A stretch of DNA of 13,935 nt from Candidatus Thorarchaeota archaeon (GCA_016840855.1 JAEORO010000001.1:1-13935); one strand, 5' to 3'. Shown: positions 3,818 through 13,935, counted from the first letter of the stretch. The notes: generated by a model not told the origin, from the sequence alone. Numbers and translations: made by a program.

Positions 3818-3890
3818 CAGGTATAATAGTATGGAATGACATATTCACAAAACTAGATTTACTTCTCATTATGAAGCGCGTCCAATTCGA

Positions 3891-3965
3891 CTTAACTCCC
3901 TACCTGTCAAGGACCTCGTGGTCCAACGAAATGGAATCAGGGTTGACATCATCCTAAGTGTCTTT
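3891..3965 (-). pseudogene. 3'-terminal relic of the 2Fe-2S ferredoxin gene
   Basis: Ungapped alignment to 8214-8288 gives 55/75 identical nt. It translates KDT*DDVNPDSISLDHEVLDR*GVK versus KDTEDKVTPDPVWLEHEVPDWWGIK, with two nonsense changes (GAG>TAG and TGG>TAG). Weaker similarity continues into the 3' flank (gaagcg..tcc at ~3873 vs ~8200). Confidence 0.85.
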
Positions 3966-4054
3966 ATCGGATATGTGGAAATATCATTGAGACATCCTCT
4001 AAGGTAACTCTTATGTCTAAATCAATGCTCTAAAACTTCAGTGATTTTATTTTG

Positions 4055-5410
4055 ATGAAACTATTTGGTACAAACGGTGTCCGTGGTATAATTAACAAGG
4101 AACTTACTGTTGATTTAGCTCTCAAATTGAGTCGAGCTACAGGTACTTTGTTGGGGCCTGGTAAGATCGCCATCGCTCGGGACTCTCGAATGGGAGGTGA
4201 AATGTTCACCCACGCATTGATTTCCGGACTGACCTCTACAGGTTGTTCAGTTGTTGACCTTGGTCCAGTGCCAACTCCCACTCTACAGTATATGATTCCG
4301 AGATTAGACTGTGTTGCTGGAGTAATGGTTACCGCATCCCACAATCCCCCTCATTTCAATGGAATCAAAGTGATTGGATCAAATGGGATTGAAGCGTCTC
4401 GAGAAACCGAAGATCAGATAGAAAAGATCTATCATTCGAACCAGTTCAAATCTGCGGAATGGGACAAGATTGGTGAATTCACTCGCTATGACTCTGCAAT
4501 TGATGTCTATTTAGCTGGAATCAAATCACTCATTGATATCGATAAGATTAAGGAGAAGAAACTGAAAGTAATTGTTGATGGCGCTAACAGTGTCGGTAGC
4601 GTGGTAACTCCTCGCCTCCTACGAGAAATTGGCTGCTCAGTTGTTTCACTTAATTCTCAGTTAGATGGCACTTTTCCAGGGAGAAATCCTGAACCAATTC
4701 CTGAGAATCTGAAGGACCTCTCAGCCGCGGTGACAGCCATGGGTGCTGATTTAGGAATTGCACATGATGGAGATGCGGATAGAGCAACCTTTGTTGATGA
4801 AACTGGTAGAGTTCTCTGGGGTGATCAATCCTTTGCGTTGATTGCTTCTCGAGTCCTTGCTAAGAAGCGTGGTTCAACACTAGTAACACCTGTATCAAGT
4901 GGTCGTCTTATTGAAGACGTAGCTCGAAATGCTGGTGCCAAGATCGACTGGACTGAAGTTGGAAGTGTTGTTGTTTCGCACAGAATTGAAGAAATTAATG
5001 CAGAGCTAGGCGGTGAGGAAAATGGCGGAGTCTTTTATCCAGATCACCAACCTGTTCGTGATGGAGCAATGACTGCTTCTCAAGTTGTGGAAATAATGGC
5101 TTTAGAAAACAAGACGCTTTCACAGCTTGTGAGTGAGCTTCCTATATATTACAACACAAAAGTGAAGGTTCCAGTTCCTCCAGAAAAGAAAGAGCCCCTT
5201 TTGGAAGCACTTCTTAATCTTAGTAAGAACATGAATCGAATCACTATAGATGGCGTGAAGGTAATCCATGATGAAGGATGGTTTCTAATCAGACCTTCAG
5301 GAACTGAGCCACTCTATCGTTGCTTTGCTGAGGGAAAAACGCAAGAAACTGCTGATCGCCTCAGTGAAGAAGGTGTTGAACTCATTGAACAAGCTAAGAA
5401 ACTAGTCTAA
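4055..5410 (+). CDS. glmM: Alpha-D-phosphohexomutase (archaeal phosphoglucosamine mutase / PMM-PGM family)
   Basis: Motifs present: FGTNGVRG, catalytic TASHNP, metal-binding DGDADR, sugar loop GGEENGG and phosphate loop RPSGTEP. The ATG is at 4055, with an in-frame TTG at 4052 and GTGAT upstream. The substrate (GlcN, Man or Glc phosphate) cannot be fixed from sequence alone. Confidence 0.93.
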   Translation: MKLFGTNGVRGIINKELTVDLALKLSRATGTLLGPGKIAIARDSRMGGEMFTHALISGLTSTGCSVVDLGPVPTPTLQYMIPRLDCVAGVMVTASHNPPHFNGIKVIGSNGIEASRETEDQIEKIYHSNQFKSAEWDKIGEFTRYDSAIDVYLAGIKSLIDIDKIKEKKLKVIVDGANSVGSVVTPRLLREIGCSVVSLNSQLDGTFPGRNPEPIPENLKDLSAAVTAMGADLGIAHDGDADRATFVDETGRVLWGDQSFALIASRVLAKKRGSTLVTPVSSGRLIEDVARNAGAKIDWTEVGSVVVSHRIEEINAELGGEENGGVFYPDHQPVRDGAMTASQVVEIMALENKTLSQLVSELPIYYNTKVKVPVPPEKKEPLLEALLNLSKNMNRITIDGVKVIHDEGWFLIRPSGTEPLYRCFAEGKTQETADRLSEEGVELIEQAKKLV

Positions 5411-5486
5411 CACAACATCTACTGTGTAATGCAAAAAGATGTGATACTGATATCCTGATGTAGAGGCTGAAAGAATCTCCAATACA

Positions 5487-5505
5487 GTTTCATAAGGCTT
5501 ATCTC
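5487..5505 (+). promoter_or_regulatory. Conserved upstream element of the GT4 operon (copy 1), candidate promoter
   Basis: gtttcataaggcttatctc matches gtttcataaaccttatctc at 12138-12156, upstream of the intact GT4 (17/19 nt). Confidence 0.4.
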
Positions 5506-5513
5506 AATTAGCC

Positions 5514-11780: not shown

Positions 11781-12018
11781 TTATGATTCAAGGCTTGAAA
11801 TCTAACCATTGTCTTATGAGAATATATTTCTAGAAACAACATTTCTCCTGTAATCCTGTAAGATAGATGGTCAAGCCCGGAGAGAAATCTGCTTTTCCAT
11901 TTGCTAGTTCTGCTGATGTGATATGTAGGTTATTGTTCTCTATCCCTCATAACACTGAAAACCCCTTTAAGATCCCTCTTAAGATAAAACAAGCTCCCAA
12001 TAGCTATAGTGATTCGTT

Positions 12019-12111
12019 TTGACGAAATTGTTTGGTTCAAACGGAGTTCGCGGCATTATAAACAAGGACCTTACCGTTGATATGACCCTCAAATTGAGTC
12101 GTGCAATAGGC
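12019..12111 (+). pseudogene. 5'-terminal relic of the phosphohexomutase
   Basis: It translates LTKLFGSNGVRGIINKDLTVDMTLKLSRAIG versus LMKLFGTNGVRGIINKELTVDLALKLSRATG at 4052-4144 (73/93 nt, 25/31 aa), with ATG>ACG. The upstream sequence ~11948-12018 also resembles ~3980-4051. The sequence then jumps to DNA resembling 5461 onward. Confidence 0.95.
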
Positions 12112-12220
12112 ATAGAAGACTATGCATTTCCATTGTTGTTTCATAAACCTTATCTCCACCCATGAAACGTCTATTTCAACGGGAAAGCATCCTTGTTTTA
12201 ACTAATGATGTGATTAGTTT

Positions 12221-13384
12221 ATGTTGAGAGTGGCATATGTAAGTAGTTATTCCCCTAGACAGTGCGGAATAGCTACCTTCACGGAAGATTTGACCAAGAG
12301 TATAGACAAACTCAAAGTGCTGGAGCCCTCAGCTATTATAGGCATTAATGATCCTGGTTCATCTTATAACTATGGAACAGAAGTAGTATTGCAAATTGAT
12401 GAGGACGATATATCAAGTTATGAAAAGGCAGCCGACTTCATTAATCGCTCAGATTTTGATTTAGTAAATGTACAACATGAGTTTGGGCTTTTTGGTGGAA
12501 TGTGGGGCGAATATCTCCTAACATTCCTAAAAAAGCTGGACAAACCTATTGTCACCACAATGCATACCACGCTTTTCCCTGATGCTGAGATATTCCAAAC
12601 TCCGGAAAGCGCTGCTACACACAAAAAAGTAGTGAAGGGAATTGCAAAATCTAGTTCTGCCATCACAGTCATGACAAATATGGCGTCTCGCATCCTTCAG
12701 AAAAGCTATCGTGTTAACAAGGAAGAAATCAAGGTCATCCCACATGGAAGCCCTAGTTTCCCATTTGTGCCAACTGAACCTGCAAAGAAAGATTTGGGTT
12801 TGGAAGGTCGGACTGTTCTGTCAACTTTCGGTCTCTTAAGTCAAGACAAGGGAATTCAGCATGCAATCAAAGCATTACCAGAGATAGTAAAAGAGCATCC
12901 TGATTTACTCTACTTGATAATTGGGGTTACTCATCCACAAGTCAGGTTGAGCGAGGGCGAGAAATACAGGAAGCGTCTCATAAGGCTGGTAAATAGACTA
13001 AATCTGAGAGATAATGTCCGATTTCACAATCGTTTCCTCAGCAAGGATGAATTGATACAGTACCTACAAGCCACAGATGTATACATTTGTCCCTACATTA
13101 AAAAAGAACAACTCTCAAGCGGAACGGTCACTTATGCGTTGGGGGCTGGAAAGCCTATCATATCCACTCCTTTCTACTACGCAGAAGAGCTTTTAGCTGA
13201 AGACAGAGGTATCCTTTGCAAGTTTAGCAGTCCTAAATCCATTTCCGATGGTTTAAGGCAACTCTTGGACAACCCTCAAAAGAAAGCTCATATTGAGAAA
13301 CTTGCATACGAACACGGCCAAAGCATGACGTGGCCTCGCGTAGCCTCGAAATATGCTGACCTGTTCAAAGAGTTGACGCAGTAG
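12221..13384 (+). CDS. Glycosyltransferase family 4 (mannosyltransferase-like subgroup)
   Basis: Motifs present: SSYSPRQCGIATF, VQHEFGLFGG, IVTTMHT, IPHG, TFGLLSQDKG, GVTHP, CPY...QLSSGTVTYALGAGKPIISTP and TWPRVA. GTGAT lies upstream. Confidence 0.93.
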   Translation: MLRVAYVSSYSPRQCGIATFTEDLTKSIDKLKVLEPSAIIGINDPGSSYNYGTEVVLQIDEDDISSYEKAADFINRSDFDLVNVQHEFGLFGGMWGEYLLTFLKKLDKPIVTTMHTTLFPDAEIFQTPESAATHKKVVKGIAKSSSAITVMTNMASRILQKSYRVNKEEIKVIPHGSPSFPFVPTEPAKKDLGLEGRTVLSTFGLLSQDKGIQHAIKALPEIVKEHPDLLYLIIGVTHPQVRLSEGEKYRKRLIRLVNRLNLRDNVRFHNRFLSKDELIQYLQATDVYICPYIKKEQLSSGTVTYALGAGKPIISTPFYYAEELLAEDRGILCKFSSPKSISDGLRQLLDNPQKKAHIEKLAYEHGQSMTWPRVASKYADLFKELTQ

Positions 13385-13392
13385 ACAGGATA

Positions 13393-13935
13393 GTGATTTC
13401 CATCGAGCTACCTTCAATTAATTGTCTCTGGCTACATAATATGACCGACGACACGGGCATTCTTCAGCATGCAAAGTCTTCGATAGTTGATCGGCGAGAA
13501 GGATACGCTACAGATGACAATGCCCGGGCACTTCTAGCTACTCTCAGATACCATGAACTAGTGGATGGAGAAAGAAACCTAGGGCTTCCTAGAACATACC
13601 TCAGTTTTCTCCTATATGTCCAGAAGAAAGATGGACGACTTCACAACTACATTGGATACGACCGTAACTTTCTTGATGATATAGGTTCAGATGATTCGCT
13701 CGGACGTGTACTCTGGGCTTGCGGCTATGCTCAAGAAACTTCAATTCCTGAAGATATACGAATAGCTGCAAAGGAAATCTTTGACAAGAGTCTTAGTTGG
13801 GCGTTGAATTTAGGTTCACCTCGGGCTCAAGCATTCACCATCTTAGGTCTCTATCATTATGCTAGAGCCTTCCCTGACGACAAGAATCCTCACCTAAATG
13901 TGATTCACCTTGCAGACGAGCTCTGTGAACTCTAT
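13393..13935 (+). CDS. Six-hairpin-glycosidase-like protein (copy 2), 3'-truncated by the window edge and absent from the ORF track
   Basis: The GTG start lies 8 nt after the GT4 stop and the frame stays open for 181 codons to the edge (MISIELPSINCLWLHNMTDDTGILQHAK...LADELCELY). About 148/181 aa (~82%) are identical to 5636..6700 with no indels. Confidence 0.92.
   Translation, partial: MISIELPSINCLWLHNMTDDTGILQHAKSSIVDRREGYATDDNARALLATLRYHELVDGERNLGLPRTYLSFLLYVQKKDGRLHNYIGYDRNFLDDIGSDDSLGRVLWACGYAQETSIPEDIRIAAKEIFDKSLSWALNLGSPRAQAFTILGLYHYARAFPDDKNPHLNVIHLADELCELY

Follow-up and report, generated by a model that had tools for sequence, protein, structure and literature searches.

Reciprocal gene loss after whole-genome duplication was reportedly described by Scannell et al. 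in 2006, and the duplication-degeneration-complementation of Force et al. from 1999 is said to partition the subfunctions of a single gene, usually regulatory elements. Mosaic operons were reportedly proposed in a paper from 2003 to arise by in situ displacement by a foreign homologue. Homology-facilitated illegitimate recombination is a mechanism from work on transformable bacteria. Fractionation, the reciprocal loss of genes from blocks that whole-genome duplication has doubled in yeasts and plants, is the subject of PMC3514672. The open-access papers searched contained no account of two copies of a prokaryotic operon that carry complementary deletions. The window analysed here, a stretch of 13,935 nt that is the complete contig C37 of a Candidatus Thorarchaeota archaeon (GCA_016840855.1, JAEORO010000001.1:1-13935), carries two versions of one operon in direct orientation. 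They are about 20% diverged and are separated by five other genes, encoding a ferredoxin, a TetR regulator, a metallo-beta-lactamase-fold (MBL) protein, a membrane protein and a PadR regulator.

The operon, a putative sugar operon of five genes, has the order phosphohexomutase (mutase), GT4 glycosyltransferase, six-hairpin-like gene (six-hairpin), followed by convergent genes for a GH130 phosphorylase and a CBS-pair protein. Ferredoxin, mutase, GT4, GH130 and CBS are each left with one intact copy and the six-hairpin gene with two. It is probable that a second allele of the operon came by lateral transfer to lie beside the resident one and that complementary deletions followed, unit 2 being the resident and unit 1 stemming from the lineage of the related genomes G018 and G021.

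Materials and methods

The genome studied (G000) is a metagenome assembly of 259 contigs with a completeness of 92% and a contamination of 6.3%. Gene calls and Pfam were used for the gene content of the window. Relatives were represented by 27 other genomes of the genus (28 with G000). Nucleotide gene trees were calculated with IQ-TREE, supports being given as pairs, and a species tree was derived from rpoB of 25 genomes. For the assembly check, independently assembled contigs (not raw reads) from four runs (X1, X2, X5 and X10) of four studies were used.

Two complementary operon units at one locus

Self-BLASTN of the window recovered the three relics and the second six-hairpin gene that a first-pass annotation of the same sequence had reported. 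Positions 5513-6178 match 13270-13935 (80.6%, 666 nt; the last 115 nt of GT4 and the six-hairpin gene), 3996-4143 match 11964-12110 (74.7%, 150 nt, E 2e-18; the mutase upstream region and the first 92 coding nt) and 3878-3965 match 8203-8288 (72.7%, 88 nt, E 6e-7; the ferredoxin 3′-end). At this locus, five segments match colinearly in the same order, on the same strands and in direct orientation. The earlier description of two direct-repeat units with conserved gene order, strands and spacers is thereby confirmed, and its relic coordinates hold within 13 nt (the ferredoxin relic starts at 3878 and not at 3891).

At the left edge of unit 1 lies the ferredoxin 3′-end relic (3878..3965, minus strand), 88 nt with two in-frame TAG codons and a 2-nt indel, for which the ferredoxin genes of G018 and G021 show 70-72% identity. 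Homology to G018 begins at 3965, with a sharp left join at 3965/3966. The mutase upstream region (3966..4051, plus strand), a putative promoter and leader, is alignable with unit 2 and eight relatives and precedes the intact phosphohexomutase gene (4052..5410, plus strand; 452 aa) with four PGM_PMM Pfam domains. The mutase reaches 566.5 bits with the archaeal GlmM model TIGR03990 (cut-off 439; model positions 1-443 of 444), and an archaeal host therefore fits. Its translation probably starts with the ATG at 4055. In relatives the mutase start is an ATG directly before TTTGGT (MFGTNG); at this place unit 1 has CTA, and the unit 2 stub and G018 have TTG. Behind the mutase, the remaining mutase-GT4 spacer (5411..5506, plus strand; 5455-5506 at 87-88% identity to the spacer of G018 and G021) is followed by the GT4 3′-end relic (5513..5627, plus strand), which has 115 nt and 38 codons with one internal TAG and is 80-82% identical to G018 and G021.

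The remaining genes of unit 1 are intact. These are copy 1 of the six-hairpin-like gene (5636..6700, plus strand; 354 aa, Pfam C5-epim_C 30.4 bits, PDB 7tem E 1e-12), the GH130 phosphorylase gene (6706..7596, minus strand; 296 aa, Pfam Glyco_hydro_130 212.9 bits, cut-off 26) and the gene of the CBS-pair protein (7628..8017, minus strand; 129 aa, Pfam CBS 96.3 bits). With the beta-1,2-mannobiose phosphorylase model NF052550 the GH130 protein scores 307 bits, which is under the cut-off of 450. The CBS upstream region (8018..8080, minus strand) is the last stretch homologous between the units, and the homology to G018 ends at 8080, too. An unattributed joint of 122 nt (8081..8202) connects unit 1 with the intact 2Fe-2S ferredoxin gene (8208..8630, minus strand; 140 aa, Pfam Fer2 33 bits). 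The joint was not alignable with G018. Nor did it score above shuffled controls against either outer flank (the right one on C258) or against the upstream region of unit 2, although non-coding divergence could hide homology.

Unit 2 begins with the remaining mutase upstream region (11953..12018, plus strand), a putative promoter aligned with unit 1 and eight relatives, and continues with the mutase 5′ relic (12019..12111, plus strand), whose 31 codons are stop-free and share 81% aa identity with the intact mutase. Then follow the remaining mutase-GT4 spacer (12127..12220, plus strand; 83% to the spacer of G005), the intact GT4 glycosyltransferase gene (12221..13384, plus strand; 387 aa, Pfam Glycos_transf_1 81.5 bits and Glyco_transf_4) and the first 181 codons of six-hairpin-like gene copy 2 (13393..13935, plus strand). 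The remainder of the latter was found on contig C258 (2,124 nt), which in reversed orientation overlaps the window at 13450-13935 with 98% identity (10 mismatches in 486 nt). Since 6 of the 10 differences recur in the independent X1 contig 11487-13902, the C258 haplotype is tied to unit 2. The order on C258 is the rest of six-hairpin 2, a GH130 3′ relic of 140 nt with a 1-nt insertion, joined directly to a CBS 5′ relic of 150 nt (the first 50 codons) plus 63 nt of its upstream region, and a PIG-L-like deacetylase gene; positions 7868-8080 of the window match 1156-1368 of the reversed contig at 74.6%. A rightward remainder of six-hairpin 2 with copies or relics of GH130 and CBS had been foretold by the first-pass annotation. 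Matches to 'PIGL 1-54' beside CBS were discarded as spurious, as the first ~85 residues of the raw 302-aa query frame overlap the antisense of the CBS relic.

In unit 1, the spacer is kept to a point 64 nt before the GT4 start of G018, from where the sequence passes to the final 115 nt of GT4. The mutase of unit 2 breaks off behind codon 31, with a resumption within the mutase-GT4 spacer, and a third deletion, also in unit 2, covers about 1.0 kb with the body of GH130 and the 3′ half of CBS. By eye, microhomology at the deletion junctions amounts to a few bases at most. The genes lost are ferredoxin and GT4 in unit 1 and mutase, GH130 and CBS in unit 2. For each of the five relics an intact partner is present in the other block, and losses are found in both blocks, as had been claimed earlier for the complementary loss of genes. 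A tblastn search of the whole assembly detected no further copy of GT4, GH130, CBS, ferredoxin or the six-hairpin gene; for the mutase it gave two paralogues at 33% identity and one more relic on contig C86. This third mutase relic (C86:17269-17633, minus strand) consists of an N-terminal part of ~65 aa (51%) fused to a C-terminal part of ~47 aa (60%) with the middle deleted, and it adjoins heterodisulfide-reductase-like genes.

Of the 27 other genomes of the genus, 10 yielded the six-hairpin gene, and the operon was likewise found in 10. G000 has three six-hairpin matches (two on C37, one on C258), G014 has two, which are halves on two contig ends, and the other nine genomes have one each. 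All of the nine same-genus loci examined contain one mutase-GT4-six-hairpin unit followed by convergent GH130 and CBS genes, in line with the expectation of an intact unit in relatives; all five genes lie on one contig in six loci, and contig ends interrupt the other three. A BLASTN search of five relatives with the whole window revealed no relics of a second unit. In G005, a single unit is located between the same outer flanks as the array of G000 (left orf306-wHTH-membrane gene, right PIG-L), and the TetR-MBL-membrane and PadR genes of G005 are located on another contig. CBS is followed by PIG-L in G001, G012, G005 and G017.

Phylogenetic affiliation and divergence of the two units

The two units have different closest relatives. 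Six-hairpin 1 groups with G018 and G021 (98/98), and six-hairpin 2 is sister to G017 (99/99) and then to G005 (81/87). The mutase (100/99) and GH130 (100/100) of unit 1 are sister to those of G018, and the GT4 of unit 2 stands with G005 and G017, apart from G018 and G021 (100/99). Relics of sufficient length show the same split: the closest genomes are G021 and G018 for the unit 1 relic of GT4, and G017 and G005 for the unit 2 relics of GH130 and CBS. When the six-hairpin copies were constrained to one clade, the tree was worse by 86.7 log-likelihood units and was rejected by the approximately unbiased (AU) test (p-AU 2.5e-6). The copies are thus not closest relatives, which speaks against the old duplication of the organism's own DNA that the first-pass annotation had assumed. 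Neighbouring pathway genes are of differing phylogenetic origin, and the survivors are located in two units, not in one operon.

In the rpoB tree, G000 groups with G005 (Shimodaira-Hasegawa-like approximate likelihood ratio test, SH-aLRT, 99), G018, G021, G020, G014 and G016 form a neighbouring clade, and G001, G012 and G010 stand at a great distance. Between the operon tree and this species tree there is a conflict: G016 and G020 are close species and have very distant operons. Background identities of G000, taken from two 20-kb regions, were 77-82% for G005, 73-79% for G018, 70-77% for G021, 65-74% for G017 and 68-71% for G001. Identity reaches 86-89% between unit 1 and G018 and 88-90% between unit 2 and G017, although the background of G017 is as distant as that of G001. 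The stretch that is highly similar to G018 (3965-8080) begins and ends where the repeat unit does.

The rates of synonymous substitution (dS) were compared gene by gene. Between unit 1 and G018, dS was 0.46-0.61, with values of 0.86 for the adjacent ferredoxin gene, 1.74 for TetR, 0.68 for the membrane gene and 1.54 for rpoB. Between unit 2 and G005, dS was 0.56-0.58 and similar to that of the flanking wHTH (0.57) and PIG-L (0.54) genes. Between the two units dS was 0.76, compared with 0.45-0.61 within each type.

Timing of the deletions

The ratio of the proportions of nonsynonymous and synonymous differences (pN/pS) between relic and intact partner was 0.15 for the mutase (31 codons), 0.25 for GT4 (38 codons) and 0.19 for CBS (50 codons). 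Summed over the 119 codons of these relics, pN was 0.128 and pS 0.632, giving a ratio of 0.20. The intact six-hairpin pair showed 0.20 over the 5′ half and 0.15 over the full length, and free drift of the relics since the split of the units would give a ratio near 0.5-0.6. Since the relics resemble the intact six-hairpin pair in this respect, the copies diverged as working genes and the deletions were late. A long decay of the relics is accordingly not upheld; most of the divergence predates the deletions. The relics are not brand new, as can be seen from a stop codon, a frameshift and the more decayed ferredoxin piece.

Integrity of the assembly

The region 2798-4975, with the ferredoxin relic and the mutase start, is bridged by contigs from X1 and X2 without differences, and contigs 3178-4977 (X10) and 3376-4975 (X5) bridge the same two elements. 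The junction at ~3970 is therefore crossed in 4/4 runs, from four studies. The junction at ~5505, at the GT4 relic, is bridged in two runs by contigs 5350-8321 (X2) and 5350-7702 (X10), the former of which bridges the CBS-ferredoxin joint as well. The junction at ~12112 is bridged by the X1 contig 11487-13902 alone, which joins PadR, the mutase stub, GT4 and six-hairpin 2; X1 is possibly the source sample. These are the three junctions at which the first-pass annotation had wanted reads to be mapped, and all of them are spanned by contigs of other runs. Parts of both units are present in 4/4 runs. The linkage of unit 1 and unit 2 is supported by the original contig, by the detection of both units in each of the four runs and by the fact that the units jointly make up exactly one full gene set.

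The bin 11626-12090 is without cover in X2, X5 and X10, for which strain variation or filtering may be responsible, and it was not used as evidence. A skip of 80 nt at 11019-11100 in one X1 contig was disregarded, as only 23 letters lie on one side of it. At the left end, window positions 1-127 are an exact 127-nt overlap with the end of contig C174 (C174:4223-4349). This suggests that C174 is the left neighbour of C37 and carries the start of the gene with SBBP repeats located there.

Origin of the second unit

For the probable arrival of a second allele by lateral transfer, we infer the following course. Unit 2, inherited with its PIG-L flank, would be the resident copy, and unit 1 would be a foreign allele whose source was the G018/G021 lineage of the same genus. 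It would have entered by recombination between species and not by copying of own DNA, about 4 kb upstream of the resident copy and at the ferredoxin 3′-end. Three internal deletions of 1.0-1.4 kb would then have removed GT4 from unit 1, the mutase from unit 2, and GH130 with CBS from unit 2. The working gene set would now be a mosaic, with mutase, GH130, CBS and six-hairpin 1 from one lineage and GT4 and six-hairpin 2 from the other. Unit 1 is counted as the stranger because its closeness to G018 exceeds what the genome background permits, although the sister species is G005. Transfer is needed in any case, since the operon is present in only 10/27 other genomes and its tree conflicts with that of rpoB. 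That the operon moves within the genus follows from G017, which is distant in its background and nevertheless 88-90% identical to unit 2; on these identities, the operon of G017 must stem from a source close to the G000 lineage. Within the genus, the region acts as a hot spot of between-species exchange, as indicated by the conflict with the rpoB tree and by a GT4 relic of G014's own.

Several observations weigh against a foreign unit 1, and part of them would be explained by an old in situ tandem duplication, a course of events that we regard as rather unlikely. In this case, a block of ferredoxin-TetR-MBL-membrane-PadR-mutase-GT4-six-hairpin-GH130-CBS would have been doubled between the membrane gene and PIG-L, with four deletions thereafter, and the likeness of the units to other species would be old paralogy with differential loss or the later export of single units. 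A tandem ferredoxin-to-CBS array explains by one rule the neighbourhoods of CBS and ferredoxin in G018, where CBS is followed by ferredoxin-TetR-membrane gene, of PadR before the mutase in G021, and of CBS and PIG-L in G001, G012, G005 and G017; in G010, CBS is located ~1 kb from a ferredoxin gene. The ferredoxin relic stands exactly at the left edge of unit 1, and the 88-nt ferredoxin repeat flanking this unit is what tandem duplication plus one 3.7-kb deletion predicts. The linkage of an SBBP gene to a ferredoxin gene in G014 hints at a native ferredoxin gene after the left flank, and the order of events is possible, as dS between the units (0.76) exceeds that within each type. The identity of the ferredoxin gene to G018 is uniform at ~80% (40-nt sliding), with no visible crossover or switch of donor; given this flat identity, an anchor of one-sided recombination could not be placed inside the gene. 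Export from the G000 lineage to G018 would give the same tree as import. Moreover, the tie of G005 to unit 2 is weak, with a six-hairpin support of 81/87 and a 5′ half that is 82% identical to both copies, and G017 stands outside the species tree, as rpoB was not found in it. The dS values of rpoB are near saturation (1.07-1.54 and above), for which reason only their rank order was used. Those of PIG-L are flat (0.54-0.66) between G000 and near and distant species (loci L022, L024, L025 and L042) and make an unreliable clock; PIG-L was therefore dropped as a vertical baseline, and this PIG-L-like gene seems to be exchanged within the genus, too. What tells against duplication is the rejection of a single clade of the two copies by the AU test. 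In addition, the distance from unit 1 to G018 is smaller than that from unit 2 to the sister species G005, where vertical descent predicts the reverse, and both units would have had to stay fully functional until a pS of ~0.5-0.6. A clean loss of a whole unit would be needed in at least four other species, in which no relics were found, the 122-nt joint 8081-8202 matches neither flank above shuffled controls, and duplication does not remove the need for transfer.

The metagenome origin of the assembly also weighs against lateral transfer, since C37 might join the loci of two co-occurring species, with unit 1 from one and unit 2 from the other. Such an artefact would be in keeping with the contamination of the bin, with the end of C37 within a repeat, with the overlap of C258 and the window of only 98% and with the region 8321-11487, which among the contigs listed is covered by short ones and not by a single long piece. 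It is nonetheless very improbable: the deletion junctions lie in unique sequence and are bridged by independent contigs, each species alone would be without essential operon genes, whereas both units together yield exactly one full set, the outer flanks match a single locus of G005, and parts of both units recur in all runs of the four studies.

Retained putative control regions and possible function

Unit 2 and eight relatives show conservation of roughly 85 nt in front of the mutase. Unit 1, unit 2 and the relatives have the blocks CTCTTAAG and CAGTGAT in common in this region, and a TTAAGATAAAA-like box is conserved in both units. The spacer motif TTTCATAA..CTTATCTC is conserved at 5487-5505 and is kept in unit 2 at 12138-12156, and in the GT4 relic of unit 1 the AGGA motif and its spacing before the six-hairpin start are preserved. 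The deletions have thus spared the putative mutase promoter region, the mutase-GT4 spacer motif, the end of GT4 before the six-hairpin start and the CBS-PIG-L region. They appear to be internal to transcription units and to leave the edges in place; the edges are conserved, and a function for them would be in accordance with this conservation. Unit 1 should accordingly express mutase and six-hairpin 1, with GH130 and CBS from the other strand, and unit 2, with a promoter of the same type, should express a stub open reading frame (ORF) of 46 codons followed by GT4 and six-hairpin 2.

Tentatively, and with considerable doubt, the locus could be read as an intermediate of mosaic-operon formation caught in progress. 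A foreign operon allele would have been added by between-species recombination, complementary deletions would have made the foreign DNA indispensable, and selection would have spared promoters and translation starts. The relics would then serve as working control elements, with the 31-codon mutase stub as promoter and leader for GT4. From the copy numbers it is a reasonable inference that the pathway depends on both halves. The chemistry can be guessed from the family names: an archaeal GlmM-type mutase, a GT4, a six-hairpin protein and a GH130 protein that most resembles beta-1,2-mannobiose phosphorylases, although below the cut-off of that model. From the GH130 match, the guess would be beta-1,2-mannoside turnover.

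Further features of the window and its relatives

The left part of the window contains a gene for a surface protein with SBBP repeats and then three genes without Pfam family matches. In G014, an SBBP gene is linked to the ferredoxin gene in the orientation of the relic. The ferredoxin gene was detected in 12 of the 27 other genomes, in some of which no operon was found. A single-copy block between the units (8835..11552) comprises, by Pfam, TetR (minus strand), the metallo-beta-lactamase-fold protein, the membrane protein and PadR (all plus strand); it is nearest to contig C12 of G005, with 83-89% nucleotide identity and dS of 0.30-0.90, and no relic of these four genes was found in unit 1. 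The ~317 nt between PadR and the mutase stub (11636-11952) gave no BLASTN match in five relatives.

Self-BLASTN of the window additionally revealed a short interspersed repeat that was absent from the first-pass annotation (8774-8848 against 10807-10880, 77%). Copies of this repeat of 65-80 nt with the core ACATCTGTTTCTCTTGCC are located at 8768-8848 and 10807-10880 and flank the TetR-MBL-membrane cassette. Two more copies were found on contig C147 and many in relatives, at least seven of them along contig C113 of G005, and in G005 the membrane gene and PadR are separated by a 4.2-kb insertion with a copy on either side. The repeat may mark the boundaries of cassettes in variable regions. An Rfam scan of the whole window with E up to 1 gave no match, the interspersed repeat included.

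G014 has its own rearranged version of the operon (locus L042, contig C31, 555-836 and 4058-5320; locus L041, contig C100). The order there is mutase, intact GT4, three inverted genes (PIG-L, a 380-aa glycosyltransferase and a 412-aa protein), a GT4 relic and six-hairpin-GH130-CBS. The GT4 relic lies immediately before the six-hairpin gene. It combines the spacer with 154 nt from the start and ~45 nt from the end of the gene and is 69% identical to the intact GT4.

Comparison with known systems

Once each copy of an operon has lost a different gene, neither can be lost, and a foreign allele could in this way become fixed without being of benefit. This ratchet is known from reciprocal loss after genome duplication and is met here on one archaeal operon. 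The locus would also make visible an intermediate of the in situ displacement by which, according to one idea, mosaic operons arise. In an ORF-based annotation, mutase, GT4, GH130 and the two six-hairpin genes appear as scattered singletons and the split pathway is missed.

As in fractionation, there are two redundant homologous blocks, genes have been lost from one or the other, the full set is distributed over both and neither would be dispensable. Unlike in fractionation, a single archaeal operon of five genes is concerned, kilobase deletions have left gene ends behind, and the blocks are probably alleles of different species. With mosaic operons formed by xenologous displacement, the locus shares surviving pathway genes from two lineages at one place, and it also has in common with them that a foreign homologue takes the role of the resident gene while the neighbourhood is kept. 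The difference is that two half-operons are found here, 4 kb apart and with the dead halves still visible, which looks like an intermediate and not an end state. The diverged alleles of one locus side by side and the truncated gene ends at the joins resemble the scars of homology-facilitated illegitimate recombination, from which the present case differs in that a whole second operon was kept and then pruned in a complementary manner, and in that no anchor or crossover was located. The label duplication-degeneration-complementation, which the first-pass annotation had chosen, is apt in so far as both copies would have become indispensable through complementary degenerative mutations, and the reciprocal loss of whole genes between redundant blocks that it was meant to describe stands. 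As a term it is loose, since it denotes a partition of subfunctions within a gene, whereas whole genes were lost here and the six-hairpin gene, which was kept twice, is without sign of a split (pN/pS 0.15-0.20). The locus is a clear and instructive case of a known process and not a new kind of system.

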